A DNA stretch of 64,000 nucleotides. Source: an uncultured Candidatus Saccharibacteria bacterium (lineage in GTDB: Bacteria > Patescibacteriota > Saccharimonadia > Saccharimonadales > Saccharimonadaceae). The stretch lies in NCBI GenBank assembly GCA_963548065.1, contig CAUUSZ010000001.1, positions 22,594 through 86,593 on the forward strand. Direction: 5' to 3'. The notes beneath the pieces were generated by a model. It ran no database searches. It had not been told where the DNA came from and saw only the letters and a program-made list of their open reading frames with translations. Positions 383 through 49,298 of the stretch are shown in pieces. The first letter of the stretch is position 1. Each line of letters starts with the position of its first letter. Both the position numbers and the translations under genes were made by a program.

Positions 383-461
<79 letters not shown>

Positions 462-544
462 TTACGGTTCTTATTCTACCAGTGATGAATGCCGATTGTC
501 AAGGATTTACCACCTGAATATCAAGATTTCCGCTCCCCCGCTTG

Positions 545-2803: not shown

Positions 2804-3439
2804 TTATTTCGCTGCTCGATACTGAATGCGCAGCATAATCCGCAAAATAATCATCCCCACAATACGCCCAAGAATGGCTGAGATGACCACGCCAGTGAGG
2901 AGAATCGTCCAGCCGGCGAAGTCGGGCGACCATAGTGGTGCGCTGAAGTTGTAGTGGTAGAGGCTGGTATCGGGCATCTTGGCAGTTTGGAGGCCAGCAT
3001 TGGTGCTGCTGAGCTTGCCCAGCTCTTCGTAGACGCAGCGTACATAGTCGATCGACCAGCTATGGAAGCGTGGCTTACACACTGCATCGGCCTTGGCGTT
3101 GGCGGTTTGGCCGGCGCGGTTGGTGGTGCTCATCGAGGCGTTGAGCGCGGCCTTGGCGTCGCGATTGTATTGCTCTTGTAGGTAGATAGGGCCAGTATCG
3201 GCATTCATATGCGCGGAGGCATATTGCTGGAGGTCGGCGATGCGCTGGCGAATCTGCTCCATATTGCCTGCCTTATCTGCCGAGAGCACTGCCCGCCGTC
3301 GCTCGGTCATCCCCACATTATTGAGCCGCAAGAAGGTCGCAGACAGCACAAGCAGCACCATAAGCAGTAGCACCAAGTGCCACATCTTGATGCGCCGGAG
3401 CCGCTTCATCGAGCGCTTGACTTGCTGTTTGTTTGCCAT
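2804..3439 (-). CDS. Hypothetical membrane protein (N- and C-terminal TM helices)
   Basis: The ORF is open to a GTG at 3463, and the first ATG is at 3439 (MANKQQ..). TM helices are WHLVLLLMVLLVLSATFL and GWTILLTGVVISAILGRIVGMIIL. The start is uncertain. Confidence 0.55.
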   Translation of the reverse strand: MANKQQVKRSMKRLRRIKMWHLVLLLMVLLVLSATFLRLNNVGMTERRRAVLSADKAGNMEQIRQRIADLQQYASAHMNADTGPIYLQEQYNRDAKAALNASMSTTNRAGQTANAKADAVCKPRFHSWSIDYVRCVYEELGKLSSTNAGLQTAKMPDTSLYHYNFSAPLWSPDFAGWTILLTGVVISAILGRIVGMIILRIMLRIQYRAAK

Positions 3440-3573
3440 GCTATGTACCCTGTGTATGCCCACTTATGCTTTGGCTCTAGTATAGCATAACCTCAATATT
3501 GCACCCAATGGCGCGAAGTGAAGTAATTATACTCACTAGCTACCTCTGGTGGTTTTGTGCCAGAGGCGGTACA

Positions 3574-4845
3574 ATGGAAGGTATGAATATCTACTTCTCT
3601 GGAATCGGCGGCGTGGGCCTGGGGCCATTGGCTGAGTTGGCACACGATGCAGGACACCATGTGCTTGGCTCGGATAGCCACATTGGACTCGAGACACAAG
3701 AGCTCGAGCAGCGTGGCATTTCCGTCTCACAAGACCAAACAGGCGAATACCTGGCCTATCGCCACGAGCAAACCCCCATCGATTGGTTTATCTATACAGC
3801 AGCTTTACCACCCGATCACCCCGAGCTCGTCTTAGCGCACCGACTTGGCATCTACACTGCTAAGCGCGATGAGCTCCTCACTTATCTCATCAACGAAAAA
3901 GACCTCCAGCTCATCGCCATCGCTGGCACCCACGGCAAGACGACGACAACTGGCCTGATGGTGTGGGCACTGCGCCAGCTGGGCGAGCCAGTAAGTTACT
4001 CGGTGGGTACAACATTGAGTTTTGGCCCCAGTGGGCATTATGTGCCAGGTAGTCGCTACTTTGTGTATGAGTGTGATGAGTTTGACCGCAACTTTTTGCA
4101 ATTCCACCCTTATCTCACGCTGCTTACCTCTGTTGACTACGACCACCCGGACACCTACCCTACCAAGCAGGATTACACCGATGCCTTCAGCCGCTTCCTC
4201 GAGCAGAGCGAATATACCATCATGTGGCAGCGCGATGCCGACGCAGGCGTTGTGCCACCACGGCGACGGGCGCGTGTCTTGGAAGATGAGGATGTGCAGC
4301 AATTTACCCTCGCAGGGGCCCACAACCGAGCAAACGCAACACTGGTGGCAACGGCGTGCAAGCAGCTCAGGCTTGGCTCACCCGAGCACATTCGAGCGGC
4401 TATCAATACCTTCCCGGGAGTGCAGCGACGCTTTGAGCGGCTTGGGCCTGGGCTGTATAGCGATTATGGCCACCACCCGGTAGAAATCGCCGCAACATTG
4501 CAAATGGCACGAGAATTGTCCGACCACGTTGTGCTGGTGTATCAGCCACATCAAAACGTCCGTCAGCATGAGATCCGCCAGCAATACACCGACTGTATGG
4601 AGCGCGCCGAGCAAATCTATTGGCTGCCAACCTACCTCAGCCGCGAAGACCCAGCCTTGCCTATTCTCACTCCACAGCAACTGACTGAGCAACTAACAAA
4701 CCGTAGTAGTGTTCACTATGCCGAGCTCGATGATGCCTTGTGGCACGTCATCCAAACTGCCCGCGCTGAGGGCAAGCTTGTGCTCTGCATGGGCGCAGGC
4801 ACGATTGATGGCTGGGTACGGCAGCGGCTCGCACAACAGGGGTAA
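3574..4845 (+). CDS. murC: Mur ligase, UDP-N-acetylmuramate--L-alanine ligase-like
   Basis: The N-terminus MNIYFSGIGGVGLGPLAELAHDAGHHVLGSD is a Rossmann-like MurC N-domain, and IAIAGTHGKTTTTGLM is the Mur ligase P-loop. The ATG at 3574 is preceded by GAGGCGG. An Mpl-type ligase cannot be excluded. Confidence 0.75.
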   Translation: MEGMNIYFSGIGGVGLGPLAELAHDAGHHVLGSDSHIGLETQELEQRGISVSQDQTGEYLAYRHEQTPIDWFIYTAALPPDHPELVLAHRLGIYTAKRDELLTYLINEKDLQLIAIAGTHGKTTTTGLMVWALRQLGEPVSYSVGTTLSFGPSGHYVPGSRYFVYECDEFDRNFLQFHPYLTLLTSVDYDHPDTYPTKQDYTDAFSRFLEQSEYTIMWQRDADAGVVPPRRRARVLEDEDVQQFTLAGAHNRANATLVATACKQLRLGSPEHIRAAINTFPGVQRRFERLGPGLYSDYGHHPVEIAATLQMARELSDHVVLVYQPHQNVRQHEIRQQYTDCMERAEQIYWLPTYLSREDPALPILTPQQLTEQLTNRSSVHYAELDDALWHVIQTARAEGKLVLCMGAGTIDGWVRQRLAQQG

Positions 4846-41534: not shown

Positions 41535-42809
41535 CTATTCTGTCCTTAGTGCCTCGATTGGGTCAAGCTTGGTTGCTTTGCGGCTTGGCAAGTAGCTGGC
41601 AATAATACCCAGGATGGCCAGCAGCAATACCAGGGCGATCATCTGCCAAGCTTCAGGCAAAAGCACCTGCATACCCTGCTCGAATTTGAGCTTTTCGACG
41701 ATCCATGGGTTAAGCAAGCTCAGCAGACTGGCCCCACCTGCGCCAATCACCCCACCGATGACGCCGATCAGCGCCGCCTCGTAGCGGAAGAGCTTACCAA
41801 CATCGCGGCTGCGCATCCCCAGCGCCTTCATCAGGCCAATCTGCTGCGTTCGCTCCAGCACCGAGATGTACATGGTGTTAATAATCCCAAACATACTGGC
41901 CAGCAACGCCAGGGCACCAAAGGCGAGCAGAGCATACTGCGCCCCATTGATGAGACTGAGCATACCTTCCTTTGCTTCAGTAAAGGTCTGGGCTTGGTAG
42001 TCGCCACCACCCAGCTTGACGACGGCGTCTTTGACGGCAGCGGCGTGCTCGTCGCCATCTGCCCGCACCACCACGCTAAAGTACTGGTTGGCTTTGCCGG
42101 GGGCTTTGGTTTTGTTGTTAATCAGCATGGCGTCATCGGTGGTAATCGTCACACCGGGCTGGTAGCCAATTGATGCCATACCGGCTGTCTCGACCGCCAC
42201 GATCGTGAGCTGTTTGTCATGCACGCCACCCGGCCCCTCGGCGTGCAATGTGATGGTTTTGCCCACGGCATCCTGGGCCGTACCAAAGCCAAAGTCTGCT
42301 AGATATTCCTTGGCCAGGATGGCTTGGCCGGGCGCCAGGTCGGTGCCATCATCAGTCTTTGTCAACTCACCAGCCACAATCTTGGATGATTTACCCTCAT
42401 TCTTGACGTTGATGGAGGCAATCAGCCGCTTGTGGTTAGCCGGGCTCTCCACATAGCGCACCGCCTGGGTCACATTGACATACGGCCGCACTGCCTTGAC
42501 GTGATCGAGCTTGCTGAGCTTGGCGACATCGTCATCACTCAGCATCACAGCACCAGTCTCGCTGATGGCCTTGTTCTGGCCGTATTCAGGCAGCTTGGTT
42601 TCGTCACGGGCGTGCGTCACATACACCGTCGAGGCACTACCGGCACTATCAATCACCGAGGTCAAGAAAGCCCGGCCGCCATTGCCCAGCATCAGCGCCA
42701 AACCAATTGTAAATGCTCCCACTGACATCGCCAGTGCTGTTAGTGCTGTGCGAGCCTTGGCTTGGCGCAGGTTCCGCCCTGCTCGCTTGATTATATCGAT
42801 TCTCCTCAT
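41535..42809 (-). CDS. ABC transporter permease (FtsX/MacB-type)
   Basis: An N-terminal TM helix, a large extracytoplasmic domain and a C-terminal FtsX 3-TM bundle are present, and the protein ends KLDPIEALRTE. Confidence 0.85.
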   Translation of the reverse strand: MRRIDIIKRAGRNLRQAKARTALTALAMSVGAFTIGLALMLGNGGRAFLTSVIDSAGSASTVYVTHARDETKLPEYGQNKAISETGAVMLSDDDVAKLSKLDHVKAVRPYVNVTQAVRYVESPANHKRLIASINVKNEGKSSKIVAGELTKTDDGTDLAPGQAILAKEYLADFGFGTAQDAVGKTITLHAEGPGGVHDKQLTIVAVETAGMASIGYQPGVTITTDDAMLINNKTKAPGKANQYFSVVVRADGDEHAAAVKDAVVKLGGGDYQAQTFTEAKEGMLSLINGAQYALLAFGALALLASMFGIINTMYISVLERTQQIGLMKALGMRSRDVGKLFRYEAALIGVIGGVIGAGGASLLSLLNPWIVEKLKFEQGMQVLLPEAWQMIALVLLLAILGIIASYLPSRKATKLDPIEALRTE

Positions 42810-43332
42810 TCGATACTCCTTACTATATTATTGTTATTGCCTGGTACTATGCTATACAAGGTATATTGAAATGTCAAGTAGTTTGAGAAATAAAGTACTA
42901 AATACTTAGCTCTTCTTCCACTCACTGCCTATATTGTCCAGCCGAGGAACGATTTATATTTCACTGTCACGCTTCGCAGCTTGCCGCACCACACTTACTG
43001 TGTACCCATGTAAAAGTATTATTTATAGTCAGATACTAAGGCACCAAGTATTTCACTGACTGGTAACTCTGTATTTTTCAGCGTTAGGTCTTACCCCTAT
43101 AGTATATTACTTAACATGAGTTCTCTTGTTTAGAGATATAAATAAACGAGCTCCTCGTCTATATTTCTTGGTGGTGTTCACGGTTGATTATTAAATATAA
43201 TACATTGAATGTCACCAACATTATTTGCGCCCAGCGCAAGCCATATCTCAGCTTTTGCCCTATACTTGTCTACGGAAGATATTACCTGCAATCTAGATAT
43301 AACATCATATGCACTGCTGCCAATAACATACG

Positions 43333-45216
43333 TTATACCCCCCAAGGTTTTTCGTTGTTTGTGATCTGAATTGAGAAGTCATGTAGCCTACCATCATCTT
43401 TATTAGTTTGAGTATTAACTTTCTTTATCTGCTTCATCAGAGCGTCTATAACATTGTGAGGTATCGTCATTAGAAAGAAAATAGCATCAGTTACCGAGGG
43501 ATTATTGATCTGCTTGATCATGTCGATAAGTTGTTTAAAATCTTTATTCTGCCAAGGATCAAGTAAGGCATCTTCCTTTTTAGGTTTTGGTGCACCCATT
43601 TTCCTATGATAGTAATCTGCATCAAGAGCCTGACTAAAAGACTGATCTAGCAGAAGCATGTCAGAATTTTTAGGCATAAATAGTCCATGTCGCAGATGAT
43701 ATGCGAGGTGAACAACCTCATTTGACGATACTATGTCTTTGTGGTTTTCAAGGCGCTGTTTAATGTAAAAAACAAACTCGTAGGGATCTTTGAAATACTC
43801 AGCCATCAAATCAAGGTCAAACAGGCTGAGTTGTATTGGCGGGAATTGGTTGACATCAGCCAAAAACACGCGTATTTGATCCATTGCCGCCGGGTATGGC
43901 TCGTTTGATACGCATAATATATACGCGTGCTTTATACTTTCCGGTGGTATAATTTGGTTGCCAGACTTATCAACTAATTTGTAGGGCTCATTACTCAGAA
44001 TTGTGTCGCGTGCTTTTATGCCTTGCTTGTAAGGGTCAATGACTGCCTTCTGAAAATCGGATTTAATCGCTTCAACATCACCATTGAGTGCAGAAGCCGT
44101 CATTTTTTTACTTTTGTTCTGGGCAATAATAGCTGTATTACCAACTATCCCCATAACATCAATATCGGTCAAGGTATTCTTTCCTTTAACTATCTTCGTA
44201 GCTTTATATGTATTCGTCTCGCCAAATATACTTTTGAAGTAGTCATATGTTATATCTTCGGCTACCTCACCAATATGTCTGTTAACAGTATTGACATATT
44301 GCTTATCTTGACGCATCCAATACAAAGGGCTTTTGTATATAGCTGAGGCTAACGTCATCATGTTCGGGAAGAAGTAGATGTCGTTTCCTAGGTTAATAAT
44401 AGGTTTGTAAGTGAATATACTCTCATTGCCAGGCTCATTGAATGTTTCTAGCTGATCACCAAACGAACAGTTAAACAAGTCAAGAAATACTTGAATGTCT
44501 TCTTTTGTAATTTTTTTGTCTGTGGCTTGTACAATTTTAACGATATAGTCGAGAGGAAATGCCATTTCGTCTATTGCACGTAAGGATTTTGCCTGCTCAT
44601 GGGTAGATATCGAGCGAGCAAGGTGTATACTATTAAACATATTCTTTAAGGCGAAAAAAATAGTCTTTGCCTTTGTGATGTTAAACTTCGTATTTGCTTC
44701 AATCCAATCTTTATCCTGTGCATATAGTCGTTGTGCTATCTCGAATGACTGTATATCATAAAACCCTGTATCACCATAAAAAGTAGTTTCTATAATCATC
44801 TCTTTACTACCAAAGATCTCTCGAAACTCTTTTTCTTTCTCTTCATCGCTCATAGCCTTGATCTGTTCTGATGAGTGTTTCATTATAGCTTCGTCAAAAT
44901 TATACATATAAGTACTATGAAGCTCATCGAGTAATAACCTGGTGTATTTGATTGCTTCATCGATTTGTTCCTTGTTAATCTCATTAAAACTGACTGCTTC
45001 ATTTTTAAGCATTAGACCCATAAGAAATGCTACCTCATTGCTATGCAATCTCGCACGCCAGTCAATATTAGCTACATTTTGTACATCTACAAAGAAATCT
45101 TTTGAAATAGCCTCTGCAAAGGCAAATATATAACCTTTTGTTGCTAAAAGTAGTTCTATATCAGATATAATATCCTCTCGCGAGCGTTTCTCTGCTATAC
45201 TCTCACTATCTCTCAT
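43333..45216 (-). CDS. Large hypothetical protein with central Mrr/NERD-like PD-(D/E)xK nuclease motif
   Basis: The 627 aa product runs from ATG 45216 (MRDSES), with a TATAAT (45229..45224) 7 nt upstream. The central segment is HIGEVAEDITYDYFKSIF...TLTDIDVMGIVGNTAIIAQNKSKK. It fits the E...D(I/G)D...(E/Q)xK pattern of Mrr_cat/NERD restriction-endonuclease-fold domains. Confidence 0.65.
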   Translation of the reverse strand: MRDSESIAEKRSREDIISDIELLLATKGYIFAFAEAISKDFFVDVQNVANIDWRARLHSNEVAFLMGLMLKNEAVSFNEINKEQIDEAIKYTRLLLDELHSTYMYNFDEAIMKHSSEQIKAMSDEEKEKEFREIFGSKEMIIETTFYGDTGFYDIQSFEIAQRLYAQDKDWIEANTKFNITKAKTIFFALKNMFNSIHLARSISTHEQAKSLRAIDEMAFPLDYIVKIVQATDKKITKEDIQVFLDLFNCSFGDQLETFNEPGNESIFTYKPIINLGNDIYFFPNMMTLASAIYKSPLYWMRQDKQYVNTVNRHIGEVAEDITYDYFKSIFGETNTYKATKIVKGKNTLTDIDVMGIVGNTAIIAQNKSKKMTASALNGDVEAIKSDFQKAVIDPYKQGIKARDTILSNEPYKLVDKSGNQIIPPESIKHAYILCVSNEPYPAAMDQIRVFLADVNQFPPIQLSLFDLDLMAEYFKDPYEFVFYIKQRLENHKDIVSSNEVVHLAYHLRHGLFMPKNSDMLLLDQSFSQALDADYYHRKMGAPKPKKEDALLDPWQNKDFKQLIDMIKQINNPSVTDAIFFLMTIPHNVIDALMKQIKKVNTQTNKDDGRLHDFSIQITNNEKPWGV

Positions 45217-45464
45217 GTATAACATTATACCGTTAGACTTATTTATTAGATTAATATAATATTTTCAACAACACCATAGCTATATCGCCTAGGCGAAATC
45301 TCAATACCTCTGCCACACCTACTAACAAACACACCGGAAAGAATCGCTCTATGACGGCATAACAAAAGATGACACCCACTTCTGTATCCAAATCAAAGAG
45401 GATAAGCACAGCGATCGCCAAGACTTCATGTCAATGTTTGAGCGTCGACCACGATAATTACTCT

Positions 45465-45543
45465 AAAATAAAAATCTCCCGCGGTGCAGCCTAGAAACTA
45501 CTTACCGGAGATTTTAAGCAACACAGCGATTAACTATGTCTAG
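45465..45543 (-). ncRNA. Candidate small RNA, unit 1
   Basis: This is the predicted transcript between the promoter at 45550..45577 and the hairpin plus T-run at 45465..45512. There is no SD or meaningful ORF. It is homologous to unit 2. Confidence 0.45.
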
Positions 45544-45549
45544 TTATAG

Positions 45550-45577
45550 ACTATATGCCTTTCGGCAGTCATGTCAA
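45550..45577 (-). promoter_or_regulatory. Sigma70-type promoter of unit 1
   Basis: The minus strand carries TTGACA (45577..45572), a 16 nt spacer, then TATAGT (45555..45550). Confidence 0.55.
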
Positions 45578-45611
45578 TGGCTATTTTCATAATTTTCATC
45601 AAAATACGCCA

Positions 45612-45686
45612 ACAAAAAATCTCCCGCTGTGTGACCTGAAAACCACCCGCCGGAGATTAGAGTGACACGGCGTTAGCCTGTATCTG
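45612..45686 (-). ncRNA. Candidate small RNA, unit 2
   Basis: This is the predicted transcript between the promoter at 45693..45720 and the hairpin (45619..45657) plus T6 run. It is homologous to unit 1. Confidence 0.45.
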
Positions 45687-45692
45687 CCTATA

Positions 45693-45720
45693 ATTATATG
45701 TCTTTTGATACCATTGTCAA
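45693..45720 (-). promoter_or_regulatory. Consensus sigma70-type promoter of unit 2
   Basis: The minus strand carries TTGACA (45720..45715), a 16 nt spacer, then TATAAT (45698..45693). Both hexamers match the consensus perfectly. Confidence 0.6.
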
Positions 45721-45799
45721 CAGCAACTCTGGAATTTACGTCCGACTTTACTTCGAAATTCTCTCAACATTTATCTTTTTTGTTTATCCTGCATATTTT

Positions 45800-46035
45800 C
45801 TACTACTTTTATCATGAAGATTAATAGACAGACAAAAACAATATTGAGAAGTTTGAAGGCGAAGATTTTATGTTCCAATTAACTGATGAGGAAATATCTG
45901 CACTTTCAAGGTCGCAAAATGTGACCTTGAACAAAGGAGCAGGGTATTTATATGCTTATGACTGTATTAAGGGGAGAACGTGCTATTAAGCAAAGGAGAG
46001 CCTTAATGAGAACATTTAAGCAGATGAAAAATGGA
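45800..46035 (+). pseudogene. Decayed, internally deleted fragment of an ORF6N-type gene (inverted relative to the intact copy)
   Basis: The plus strand reads ..GAAGATTTTATGTTCCAATTAACTGATGAGGAA..TCGCAAAATGTGACCTTGAACAAAGGAGCAGGGTATTTATATGCTTATGAC..TTTAAGCAGATGAAAAA. This matches the reverse complement of about 46855..47115 inside the intact gene, with a roughly 57 nt deletion and frame disruption. Confidence 0.6.
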
Positions 46036-46219
46036 CAATCTCACCTCATACGTAGTCTTTCTGATCTTCTTTGTCGTCTTTGTTACTATTGTTTGTTTAT
46101 TTTTATTTTCTCTTGCATATAGTTTTTCTTCTATTTGTTGCACATAAAAAGACGTTAGATTGTTACTTCTACCGCCCTACGTAAAGCTTATATAACTGCC
46201 TCATCTGTTATTGACATAG

Positions 46220-47233
46220 TTAAATTTTCAAATTCTTATTGTGTAGCATTCCACCAAACATCGTATGATACATGTCTTTTGATGATTCTTCTATCTTAGT
46301 AATACTTGATATTTTATTTCCGGCATCTTTTGATGATGCTCCACAAAGATAAAAGGCTTCATGTTCTGTCCCATAGTCTATCGCAATATACCGATCGTGA
46401 TACTTTTTACCTGCAATCTTCATTTTTACGTTGATGGTAGGGTAGTCTCTTATAAAATCATGGAGAATATTTCTTGTAAGCATATCTTTATGTCTTACAT
46501 TATCGCTAAATATAATGACTTCAACACTATCTTTTGCAGCTCTTAGCAGCTCTAATGTTTTTAAGCCTATATAGTTATCTATGACATAAATGCTTTTCTT
46601 GGCAGACTTATATAGCTTAGTATAGGCAACATCAGCTTCTATCTTATCTCCATTCATCAAGAGGAAGTGTTTATAGGTATCCGGATCTATAAAATTATCC
46701 ATCACTTTTTTCAAATCCTCTTTTGTTGCTAAGGTGCTTATTGTATCATTTATCTTTGCTATATCATGTGTGTTCTTATTAGTCTGTATAGCTATTTGGA
46801 CTAATTCTTTTGAGCCGATAAAATCTTGATTTTCAATCATAAAGTCTTTCATCTGCTTAAACAAGCGTATTAAGGCCTTGCTCTGTTTAACTGCCAGGTC
46901 TCCCCTCAATACGGTCATAAGCATATAAATACCCTGCTCCGTAAAGGCATAGGGATTGTACTTTATATTGCTTCCTCTGCCTGTTCCTTTGTTCAAGGTC
47001 ACATTTTGTGATCTTGAAAGTTCGTCCACTTCCTCATCAGTCAATTGGAACATAAAATCTTCATCAAATTTTTCATTATTTCTTTTTACCTGTTGATTAA
47101 ACGCTCTTGTTTCATACCCATAAATTTCAGCAAGTTCAAAATCAAGCATAACCTTTTGATTTCTTATATAGTGAATCTTGCTTTTAATTGTCGTTTCATC
47201 TATTACCACAATCTCTTTATTTTCTTCTGTCAT
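46220..47233 (-). CDS. ORF6N (KilA-N-like) domain protein with conserved C-terminal domain
   Basis: IRNQKVMLDFELAEIYGYETRAFNQQVKRNNEKFDEDFMFQLTDEEVDELSRSQNVT....YNPYAFTEQGIYMLMTVLRGDLAVKQSKALIRLFKQMK is the ORF6N signature. The C-terminal ...VIDNYIGLKTLELL...KKYHDRYIAIDY...YLCGASSKDAGNK is the domain commonly fused to it. The start is ATG 47233 after GGAGGTG. Confidence 0.8.
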   Translation of the reverse strand: MTEENKEIVVIDETTIKSKIHYIRNQKVMLDFELAEIYGYETRAFNQQVKRNNEKFDEDFMFQLTDEEVDELSRSQNVTLNKGTGRGSNIKYNPYAFTEQGIYMLMTVLRGDLAVKQSKALIRLFKQMKDFMIENQDFIGSKELVQIAIQTNKNTHDIAKINDTISTLATKEDLKKVMDNFIDPDTYKHFLLMNGDKIEADVAYTKLYKSAKKSIYVIDNYIGLKTLELLRAAKDSVEVIIFSDNVRHKDMLTRNILHDFIRDYPTINVKMKIAGKKYHDRYIAIDYGTEHEAFYLCGASSKDAGNKISSITKIEESSKDMYHTMFGGMLHNKNLKI

Positions 47234-47306
47234 GAAATGCACCTCCACAATTATCTCAATATCTTTTCCAATCTGATACGCACTACATAGCTTTTTGAAA
47301 TTAATA

Positions 47307-47630
47307 TCATGTCCTTTTGTATTTTTCTATTCCACCTTCAGCTTTTCCGATGTGTTCCACATTCTTTACAAGTCCATTATTTACATTTTCATAAAACCAT
47401 CTACCTATCAAAGCTGGCGGTGTTGCGATTAACTCTCTTAAAACAAACTCTTTCCCCTTCGGCAAGGAGCTTATTGTATTGAGTAAGGCAGTATACAGTG
47501 TGACATAGCTTGTATTTTCTTGTAGACTGCTGCACTTACAATATTCACTCACACTTGGGTAATTACCCTCTATTGCTTTTTTCATTAAAGTTTTCAGTTC
47601 TTCATCGGTTACGGTAAATTGAATTCGCAT
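47307..47630 (-). CDS. Hypothetical protein (possible RHH-like N-terminus)
   Basis: This 107 aa ORF is AT-rich and lies upstream of, and co-oriented with, the ORF6N gene. Confidence 0.5.
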   Translation of the reverse strand: MRIQFTVTDEELKTLMKKAIEGNYPSVSEYCKCSSLQENTSYVTLYTALLNTISSLPKGKEFVLRELIATPPALIGRWFYENVNNGLVKNVEHIGKAEGGIEKYKRT

Positions 47631-47931
47631 TTATATATTCTCTCTTTATAACTGAGATTATTACAATATCAATATCATTTTATCATACATACAATGATTT
47701 TTCTCATACTACAATTTTAATCCTTACATGATGTTTTTACGCTTCGCCATAATCTGACACCACGTTTCCCATTACTGCTCTAAAAACGCCTTTCACTTAC
47801 TTTTAGGATAGCTATACATGTTTTCCCTTATCATAATCTTCACGCGTTGGAATCTTGCCGGTCTTTTTCTGAGATAGCCTATCCTTATCTTGTTCATACC
47901 AGGTACAGATCGTTACATCCGTCGTCTCGAT

Positions 47932-48306
47932 ATGTCTTTTCAGACGACCCGACTAACGCAGCGCCGGATAGCCGAGCTGTTCGACGTCGATGTGCGCACC
48001 ATCAGCGAGCACCTCGGGAATGTCTTCTCTTCTGGTGAACTGGAGCGTGATTCAGTTATCCGGAAATTCCGGATAACTGCAAGTGACGGTAAGCGATACG
48101 CGGTTCAGCACTACAACCTCGACGCCATCATCTCGGTCGGTTACCGCGTCAACTCGGTGCGTGCTACCCAGTTCCGTCAGTGGGGTACGAGTGTGCTGCG
48201 CGACTTTGCTATTCGGGGCTATGTTATAGACCGCCAACGTTTAGAGCAGCCCTCTCAAGCCGCCTGGCACAAGCGCCGCGCACAAGTAAGTGAGTCAACG
48301 AAATGA
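47932..48306 (+). pseudogene. Truncated RhuM-family gene
   Basis: LTQRRIAELFDVDVRTISEHLGNVFSSGEL...RKFRITASDGKRYAVQHYNLDAIISVGYRVNSVRATQFRQWGTSVLRDFAIRGYVIDRQRLE matches the N-terminal third or so of RhuM-family proteins. It then ends, whereas full-length members as I recall them are roughly 300+ aa. Confidence 0.65.
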
Positions 48307-48345
48307 GACACTGGCTTCTCTATACCAGTGTCTCATTATCTTTTC
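48303..48345. terminator. Bidirectional terminator between the RhuM remnant and arcC
   Basis: A perfect 12 bp stem ATGAGACACTGG-cttctctata-CCAGTGTCTCAT is followed by TATCTTTT. Confidence 0.75.
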
Positions 48346-48356
48346 CCTTGCGACGC

Positions 48357-49298
48357 TTATGATACAATAATCGTCCCCTGCTCACCCGCCACAGCGGCAG
48401 CAGCATGCTCTAGGTTGGCAATGATGGCGCGCCGACCAGGCTTTGCCACGAAATTAAGCGCGGCCTGCACCTTCGGTAGCATACTACCCGACGCAAACTG
48501 CCCCTGCTCAGCATAAGCCTGCATCTCCTGGCTGGTCGTCCGGCCAATCGCACGGGCCTGCGGCGTGCCATAGTCGACCATCGCGTTATCGACGGCCGTG
48601 AGAATTACCAAAGCTTCAGCATCAACCGCATCAGCCACCACTGCAGCGGTAAAGTCCTTATCAATCACCGCCTCGACGCCAGCCATGCCCCGCGCTTCAT
48701 TCTCAACCACCGGAATTCCGCCACCGCCCGCTGTCACAACGGTCAAGCCAGCATCAAGCAAGGCACGCACCGCACCTTCTTCGACTACGCGCTGCGGCCG
48801 TGGCGATGGCACAACGCGGCGCCAGCCTCGCCCCGCATCTTCTTTGAAGACGAAATCGCGCCCAGCCGCCGACTGCTGCGCCTCGGCCTCAGAGGCATAA
48901 AAGACCCCGATTGGCTTGGTAGGATTCGCAAACGCCGGGTCATTCGCATCCACCACCGTTTGTGTCACCATCGTCACGGCGTGGTTTGGCATGCCACGGC
49001 GAGCAAACTCGTTCGTCAGCGCCTGCTGCAGCCAGTAGCCGATCTCCCCCTGGCTCATCGCGCCGCACGTATCAAGCGGCATCGTTGGCACCTCAGGGGT
49101 ATTAATCGCCTCCTCATGGAGGACAATATTCCCCACCTGTGGCCCATTGCCGTGAACGATCACCAGCCGATGCCCAGCCGCAATCAGCGGCACCAGCTGA
49201 GCCGCTGTCTCGCTCGCCACTCGCTGCTGCGCAGCCGCACTTGCTTCACCTTGTCTTTGGAGGGCGTTACCACCCAATGCAATCACAATTGTACTCAT
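48357..49298 (-). CDS. arcC: Carbamate kinase
   Basis: MSTIVIALGGNAL..., VIVHGNGPQVG and GGGGIPV are carbamate kinase motifs. It is the last gene of the arc operon. Confidence 0.95.
   Translation of the reverse strand: MSTIVIALGGNALQRQGEASAAAQQRVASETAAQLVPLIAAGHRLVIVHGNGPQVGNIVLHEEAINTPEVPTMPLDTCGAMSQGEIGYWLQQALTNEFARRGMPNHAVTMVTQTVVDANDPAFANPTKPIGVFYASEAEAQQSAAGRDFVFKEDAGRGWRRVVPSPRPQRVVEEGAVRALLDAGLTVVTAGGGGIPVVENEARGMAGVEAVIDKDFTAAVVADAVDAEALVILTAVDNAMVDYGTPQARAIGRTTSQEMQAYAEQGQFASGSMLPKVQAALNFVAKPGRRAIIANLEHAAAAVAGEQGTIIVS

Follow-up and report, generated by a model that had tools for sequence, protein, structure and literature searches.

Two tandem candidate small RNA genes upstream of a NERD/Upx-like gene in an AT-rich island of Saccharibacteria

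What could a pair of short, repeated, non-coding units be doing between defence-like genes in the genome of an oral Saccharibacteria epibiont, when each unit appears to carry its own promoter and its own terminator? The question is raised by a stretch of 64,000 nucleotides (nt) from an uncultured Candidatus Saccharibacteria bacterium (contig CAUUSZ010000001.1), which was analysed whole and is referred to here as the window. Two homologous units lie on its minus strand within 45460–45725, with a start-to-start spacing of 145 nt; they are co-oriented with a downstream gene encoding a 682-amino-acid (aa) NERD/Upx-like protein of PD-(D/E)xK type, and the gap to that gene is 240 nt. The reading favoured here, to which we give about an even chance on the strength of sequence evidence, is that the two units are paralogous sibling small RNA (sRNA) genes, each an autonomous minus-strand transcription unit. 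An original prediction, made from the letters of the window, had described tandem promoter–small RNA–terminator cassettes at this place and had suggested a link with the nuclease-like gene. The coordinates that it gave for units 1 and 2 on the minus strand were all correct, and its view of them as independent non-coding transcription units, in which a promoter close to consensus leads into a structured RNA of ~75 nt that ends at an intrinsic terminator, agrees with the predictions set out below. The elements of the pair, in the direction of transcription, are as follows.

45693..45720, minus strand: unit 2 promoter, with TTGACA (45720..45715), a 16-nt spacer and TATAAT (45698..45693), scoring 12/12
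45613..45686, minus strand: predicted sRNA 2, ~73 nt, with a 5′ hairpin, a terminator hairpin and a U-run
45550..45577, minus strand: unit 1 promoter, with TTGACA (45577..45572), a 16-nt spacer and TATAGT (45555..45550), scoring 11/12
45465..45543, minus strand: predicted sRNA 1, ~75–79 nt, with a 5′ hairpin, a terminator hairpin and a U-run

Predicted promoters, transcripts and terminators

Promoters were scored as the number of matches to the sigma-70 consensus hexamers, out of 12. Both promoters claimed for the units (TTGACA/TATAAT in unit 2, TTGACA/TATAGT in unit 1) were present, and sites scoring at least 11/12 proved rare: the whole 64 kilobases (kb), both strands included, contain three, namely those of units 1 and 2 and one at 502 on the minus strand (TTGACA-18-TAGAAT, 11/12). 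This last site stands directly upstream of a transfer RNA (tRNA) gene (387–461, minus strand), which ends in a hairpin and T-run terminator. All three of the best sigma-70-type promoters in the window precede short non-coding units with hairpin and T-run ends. Weaker promoter-like matches numbered 15 in the AT-rich region surrounding the units, against 18.5 expected from shuffles, and are therefore not enriched there. A 16-nt copy of the unit 2 promoter spacer at 47930–47945 was considered as a third promoter, upstream of the island operon, and was set aside as a chance match with no -10 or -35 hexamer. The tRNA locus (387–502, minus strand) serves as a reference, internal to the window, for the layout of a stable-RNA gene.

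With the start point of sRNA 2 placed ~7 nt past the -10 hexamer, the predicted RNA folds at -26.7 kcal/mol (z -3.25; 0/200 shuffles as good) into a 5′ hairpin at 45664–45684 (5+3 base pairs (bp), a bulged A and a UAAC loop) and a terminator hairpin at 45618–45658, with a U-run at 45614–45619. The fold predicted for sRNA 1 is similar in plan, at -24.8 kcal/mol (z -2.48; 3/200 shuffles as good), and comprises a 5′ hairpin at 45520–45540 (8 bp, UAAUC loop), a terminator hairpin at 45473–45513 and a U-run at 45465–45474. The conserved hairpin that had been claimed in each unit was recovered: the pattern AATCTCCGG-N-GCGGGAGATTTTT has exactly two matches in the window, at 45615–45658 and 45470–45513, one to a unit, and none in shuffles. 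The T-runs corresponding to the two U-runs were likewise found exactly where they had been reported and, because the T-run is conserved on the minus strand only, they fix the orientation of the units as minus. Inverted repeat I5 also offers a pairing between the 3′ arm of the 5′ hairpin and the terminator on its 3′ side, a match that is weak and not placed as an antiterminator would be.

Coding potential had been reported as absent from the units, and on the minus strand this was borne out. The list of open reading frames (ORFs) contains no minus-strand ORF of at least 30 aa within the transcribed parts, and the in-transcript starts detected by inspection open only 3 and 8 codons, unconserved between the units; the 36-codon ORF mentioned in the original prediction (45555..45665) sits on the plus strand. 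A small-peptide or type I toxin–antitoxin explanation was rejected, as the plus-strand ORFs 45555..45665 and 45698..45817 begin inside the -10 regions and are homologous over only ~25 nt, and the minus-strand transcripts are without a conserved ORF.

Conservation and distribution of the units

Units 1 and 2 share 65% identity over 123 columns, with a local alignment score of 47 compared with 15.7±2.5 for shuffles (0/300 as high). What has stayed alike since the duplication is chiefly the hexamers of the promoter and the base of the terminator. The -35 hexamers agree at 6/6 positions, the -10 hexamers at 5/6 and the terminator bases, with their unpaired G·G, at 19/19; the flanks, the spacer between the hexamers and the upper part of the stem reach ~50%. 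The 5′ hairpin, at 62%, has diverged relative to the promoter and terminator base, much as the original prediction had it. In the consensus structure, 95% of pair cells are standard pairs, against 35–53% when the partners are slid by 1–3 columns, and one compensatory G-C/A-U pair distinguishes the paralogs in the upper terminator stem.

Orthologs of the units in variants of the same island (individual loci bear L numbers) show a similar picture. The pair 45678/45669 in the unit 2 5′ hairpin is G-C in the window, G-U in L154 and A-U in L157, and ortholog substitutions at stem positions keep pairing in 7/7 cases. Both the -35 and the -10 hexamers of the two units are invariant across all island variants. 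Insertions and deletions among the variants all fall outside the units, never within one; they consist of 65 nt inserted before the promoter of unit 2, 9 nt lost from the interval that separates the unit 2 terminator from the promoter of unit 1, and a 14-nt difference beyond the terminator of unit 1.

For distribution searches a covariance model, R1, was built from the units, and relatives of the 682-aa protein were drawn from species-representative genomes (31 loci) and from assemblies. R1 matches unit 2 with 101.5 bits and unit 1 with 89.7 bits, and has no match in the rest of the window. Its 43 matches, in 22 sources, all belong to one island lineage, the lone single match coming from a contig that ends upstream; both units are kept in 21/21 related loci with a complete intergenic region. 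Members of this lineage have at least 85% protein identity, the same flanks (MacB/FtsX – PadR) and the layout DUF1413 – ORF6N – units – 682-aa NERD/Upx-like protein. The units are intact even in L155, where the ORF6N gene is split, and in the window, where the nuclease gene is frameshifted.

Outside the lineage, searches were negative. R1 detected no unit in 34 loci carrying homologs of the protein (290 kb; 24–82% identity, other contexts; best E-value 1.4), and a generic scan for a promoter followed by a hairpin-T-run terminator detected no analogous cassette in the 1.2 kb upstream of the 34 homologs. Co-occurrence of the units with homologs of the protein, a check put forward with the original prediction, fails beyond one island lineage, and the functional pairing with the nuclease-like protein that it had envisaged loses its footing at these same 34 loci. 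An association with ORF6N rather than with the nuclease was rejected in turn, since no unit is present in the six ORF6N loci examined on viral contigs, which reach 77% identity and have ~30% guanine plus cytosine (GC). Limited to one island lineage, the units do not accompany either of the neighbouring protein families as a conserved partner.

A relationship to described RNAs or mobile elements, also put forward as a check, was sought with equally negative outcome, there being no Rfam, phage, plasmid or viral match. No Rfam match overlaps the units when 44000–47000 is searched with E as high as 10, and with the gathering score as cut-off two tRNAs are the only matches in the window; ARAGORN reports none in 42000–49000, and blastn against phage and plasmid collections returned no match. 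In viral contigs, a loose form of the hairpin pattern matched at least 120 stretches, taken as chance, and a stricter form matched 0; an exact-pattern scan of metagenome contigs gave two matches to the same GC-rich sequence, judged by inspection to be chance. A dispersed repeat, a miniature inverted-repeat transposable element or the end of an insertion sequence was rejected as an explanation, with only two adjacent copies present in 64 kb and none in the 290 kb of related loci.

The island and its genes

The units lie in a lineage-specific, horizontally acquired island of oral Saccharibacteria, AT-rich as had been claimed. On the minus strand its order is a DUF1413 gene, an ORF6N/KilA-N-type gene, an inverted ORF6N fragment, the two units and the 682-aa gene. 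Features other than the units are listed here.

43000–48000: AT-rich island, GC ~0.35 over this span and ~0.55 in the flanks, right-hand edge near 47930
46220..47248, minus strand: ORF6N/KilA-N-type gene (Pfam ORF6N 2.5e-33; PADLOC PDC-S05 8e-113)
45821..46029, plus strand: inverted, frameshifted ORF6N fragment, just upstream of unit 2 and pointing away from it
45395..45440, minus strand: claimed decayed third unit, unsupported and not counted as part of the feature
45285..45296: palindrome of 12 bp, TCGCCTAGGCGA, in the interval from unit 1 to the nuclease-like gene
43180..45225, minus strand: gene for the 682-aa NERD/Upx-like PD-(D/E)xK-type protein (homologs 679–757 aa)

The third unit amounts to an 11-nt match, CATTGACATGA, whose score was equalled or exceeded in 16/300 shuffles, and its TTGACA lies within a 14-nt segment absent from 5/5 aligned relatives (L001, L154, L157, L166 and L168). 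The palindrome TCGCCTAGGCGA is present and perfect in the window, as had been noted, and in L154 and L157, but it carries one mismatch (TCGCTTAGGCGA) in L001, L166 and L168. A near-perfect palindrome, TTATCCGGAATTTCCGGATAA, was also seen at 48049–48069 (minus strand), in GC-rich DNA just beyond the right-hand edge of the island.

The downstream gene had been described as nuclease-like and 627 aa in length. The label is reasonable; the length is not, as 627 or 630 aa reflects a frameshifted 682-aa gene. The frameshift occurs at a G-run that reads GGGGGG in the window (43338–43343) and GGGGAGG in the closest relative, L172; one base has been lost, and the last 52 residues are truncated. A pseudogene, phase variation and an error in the assembly are all candidate explanations. 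No Pfam family matches the 682-aa protein itself; among its homologs NERD is found in 4/20 cases and SEC-C in 2. In a Foldseek comparison of its AlphaFold2 model (mean predicted local distance difference test score, pLDDT, 85.5) the best match was Upx 9wuf (E 1.3e-4, probability 1.0), with Can2/Card1-type nuclease domains next. It is this modelled resemblance, to Upx and then to Can2 nucleases, that makes the label seem reasonable; the Upx match is weak overall (TM-score 0.35, query-normalised; 9% identity), and the catalytic triad reads D356...Q369-x-K371.

The 682-aa gene has a -10 hexamer of its own, TATAAT at 45229–45224, followed after 7 nt by the ATG at 45216 (an MRDS start common to homologs); the -10 is good, the -35 poor, and there is no Shine-Dalgarno sequence. 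A TATAAT so close to the ATG, together with the missing Shine-Dalgarno sequence, indicates that the gene is probably leaderless. A homolog with 75% identity, at L003, has TATAAT-N6-ATG at 3988–4005 and an upstream spacer of ~150 nt, and the protein family may be expressed from leaderless messenger RNAs (mRNAs) in Saccharibacteria. Within the gene, a central segment (~43550–44800) has 54–86% identical columns per 50-nt block, in comparison with 95–100% in the flanks of the island variants. Diversifying segments are often seen in the recognition domains of defence proteins, and to judge by its block identities the central segment is a putative mosaic or diversifying region.

PDC-S05, the model matched by the ORF6N/KilA-N-type gene, is a PADLOC phage-defence candidate. 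Over 46146–47247 the window has 75–78% DNA identity to L173 and L174 (~3002–4079), which are IMG/VR viral contigs of ~30% GC, and the likeness stops at the gene borders. Such likeness to genes on low-GC viral contigs suggests that the ORF6N/PDC-S05 gene of the island came from a low-GC phage or host. The inverted fragment (45821–46029) forms an inverted repeat with 46847–47062, at 81–88% complementarity, and matches ORF6N genes of related loci by blastn. It yields small spurious plus-strand ORFs, for example 45952..46122, and a 96-aa ORF is annotated there in relatives such as L154. At L155 (980–1994), ORF6N is split into ORFs of 141 aa and 161 aa, beside two intact sRNA units.

Competing readings and known systems

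At the level of sequence the two units have the attributes of sibling sRNAs: they are homologous, each has its own promoter and terminator, and they are non-coding. As sibling sRNA genes, each would have transcription started by a near-consensus sigma-70 promoter to give an RNA of ~73–79 nt, in which a brief single-stranded stretch links the 5′ hairpin to a long, imperfect one, and the U-run would end transcription. The divergent 5′ hairpin region would carry specificity, and the AAUCUCCGG/GCGGGAGAUU base, which is conserved, would serve both RNAs as a scaffold or would contact a protein; a shared scaffold with a differing specificity region is the usual pattern among sibling sRNAs, and the perfect conservation of this base, its unpaired G·G included, hints at a sequence-specific contact. 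Both terminators would have a secondary role as insulators, keeping upstream read-through out of the apparently leaderless 682-aa gene. We infer that the units are transcribed and that the RNAs would act in trans, by base-pairing or by protein binding.

Several observations weigh against this reading. When the 5′ 36–38 nt of each RNA were compared with the whole window by RNAduplex (6394 windows), only self-antisense matches were returned and no target stood out, the next-best duplexes (-34 and -30 kcal/mol) falling within the background tail (mean -16, standard deviation 4–5). All orthologs come from one closely related island lineage, ~95% identical throughout, and with variants so alike almost everywhere, conservation of the units does not measurably exceed that of the neighbouring DNA; the covariation, moreover, rests on very few events. 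Both terminator hairpins, which are long and irregular, were missed by a simple terminator scan. Finally, with no homolog found outside the lineage, nothing shows that the RNAs matter beyond it.

Among the alternatives, it is rather unlikely that the punctuation matters and not the RNA product, the units serving as transcriptional insulators whose terminators block read-through from the DUF1413-ORF6N operon and whose promoters are incidental or keep the terminators occupied. Such insulators would suit an interval in which no terminator-like site separates the ORF6N stop (46220) from unit 2, would protect a probably leaderless gene that read-through would harm (the layout at L003 is similar), and would need no trans target, of which none was found; yet insulation does not call for two perfect promoters, a conserved 5′ hairpin or a terminator base identical at 19/19 positions, and homologs of the 682-aa gene elsewhere do without such modules. 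Unlikely as well is a non-functional relic, a piece of promoter and terminator that was duplicated and left behind by the rearrangements that also left the inverted ORF6N fragment, its conservation reflecting only how young the island is. The intergenic region does contain a fragment of a pseudogene and several insertions and deletions, the units do not exceed the island's background conservation and the family is confined to one lineage. Against this stand paralogs that are only 65% identical and nonetheless retain promoter hexamers, fold and terminator, which requires selection after the duplication, along with stem substitutions that preserve pairing and indels that avoid the units.

We consider it quite improbable that the RNAs work together with the NERD/Upx-like nuclease or with ORF6N/PDC-S05, whether as an RNA antitoxin, an inhibitor, a regulator or a guide taken on in this lineage. 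The units do adjoin the nuclease-like gene in the same orientation, they co-occur with the protein in every island variant, and the setting is defence-like, with its PDC-S05 match, its Foldseek likeness to Upx and Can2 and its hypervariable central nuclease segment. Opposed to this, neither the RNA nor an analogous cassette accompanies the 34 protein homologs (at most 82% identity), nor the RNA the six ORF6N loci; the RNAs are almost invariant in the same islands in which the central nuclease segment varies strongly, so that the two do not co-vary; disruption of the nuclease gene in the window and of ORF6N in L155 has left the units intact; complementarity to island mRNAs does not rise above background; the locus departs from type III toxin–antitoxin systems (PMC3401426); and Upx is described as a single-protein system (PMC13099982). 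Little probability attaches, in the same way, to a scheme in which the RNAs would hold the nuclease (or ORF6N/PDC-S05) in check and be titrated during phage attack; if true, it would amount to an RNA-controlled single-protein nuclease with one promoter per RNA, a layout undescribed for type III toxin–antitoxin systems. Very improbable, lastly, are cis-regulatory leaders, that is, tandem attenuators with strong promoters that would transcribe the 682-aa gene only if some factor overrode the terminators. Position and orientation upstream of the gene would allow this, as would the poor -35 that the gene has despite its good -10, but there is one promoter per terminator, no alternative pairing with the terminator 5′ arm was seen in folds or by inspection, and a 240-nt gap, the gene's own -10 hexamer and a leaderless-type start intervene. 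The arrangement is missing from all other homologs, no Rfam riboswitch or leader matches, and transcripts running into the 682-aa gene from the sRNA promoters would, if that gene is leaderless as seems probable, be translated poorly, a point that counts against leaders or attenuators.

Sibling sRNA genes remain the preferred reading. Saccharibacteria epibionts have tiny genomes and few recognisable regulators, and a limited literature search found no sRNA from this group; the candidate pair is a concrete target for transcript validation, and the covariance model is ready for wider searches.

The original prediction had likened the locus to type III toxin–antitoxin systems, to regulatory RNAs and to guide RNAs. 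Type III loci (ToxIN, CptIN, TenpIN) have near-identical tandem repeats of ~36–45 nt under a single promoter with one terminator, an array detectable with Tandem Repeats Finder, and their toxin is a small ToxN/AbiQ, CptN or TenpN endoribonuclease (PMC3401426). The present locus is like them in having repeated non-coding units upstream of, and co-oriented with, a nuclease-type gene, and a terminator between RNA and gene. It is unlike them in its two units of 145-nt period and 65% identity, each with promoter and terminator, and in its protein, which is 682-aa and NERD-like, has its own promoter and belongs to a family whose members outside the island lineage lack the RNA. Tandem Repeats Finder (minimum score 30, 45000–46300) reported no array, only a 10-nt two-copy repeat inside the gene. 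The type III comparison falls away for want of a short array, of one promoter shared by the units, of a toxin of ToxN type and of an RNA that accompanies the protein's homologs generally; the guide-RNA comparison does so too, two units with a promoter each and no repeat-spacer periodicity being unlike a CRISPR- or TIGR-type array.

Upx is a single-protein PD-(D/E)xK anti-phage nuclease (PDB 9wuf), and its abstract mentions no RNA component (PMC13099982). The structural likeness to Upx, closer than to any other entry, is that of the neighbouring protein and not of the RNAs; Upx has 1212 aa compared with 682 aa here.

A further comparison is with phage immunity sRNAs. P22 sar and P1 c4 lie beside antirepressor (Ant/KilA-type) genes, are ~70–77 nt long, strongly expressed and terminator-ended; the antisense or complementary sites that they work through are at the ant gene. 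The predicted RNAs resemble them in being short and terminator-ended and in sharing a mobile element with a gene for a protein of ORF6N/KilA-N type. They are unlike sar and c4 in that the units are placed downstream of ORF6N without being antisense to it, in that complementarity is at background level only, and in that ORF6N homologs in viral contigs are without units.

The closest parallel is offered by tandem sibling sRNAs. One promoter per unit, which had been thought to match no class, is the layout of OmrA/OmrB, PrrF1/PrrF2 and AbcR1/AbcR2, tandem sRNAs with one promoter and one terminator each (PMC4211561). The units have no sequence or Rfam relationship to these pairs and differ from them in being predicted only, and in their setting, a foreign AT-rich island in a Saccharibacteria (candidate phyla radiation) epibiont. 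As in OmrA/OmrB of Escherichia coli, PrrF1/PrrF2 of Pseudomonas aeruginosa and AbcR1/AbcR2 of Agrobacterium and Sinorhizobium, RNAs of ~75–90 nt are arranged head-to-tail in one intergenic region; as in sibling sRNAs, divergence is found in an internal or 5′ segment and conservation at the ends; and the identity between units, 65%, compares with >65% between AbcR1 and AbcR2 (PMC4211561). The candidate sRNA pair is new and previously unannotated; the layout itself is well known.

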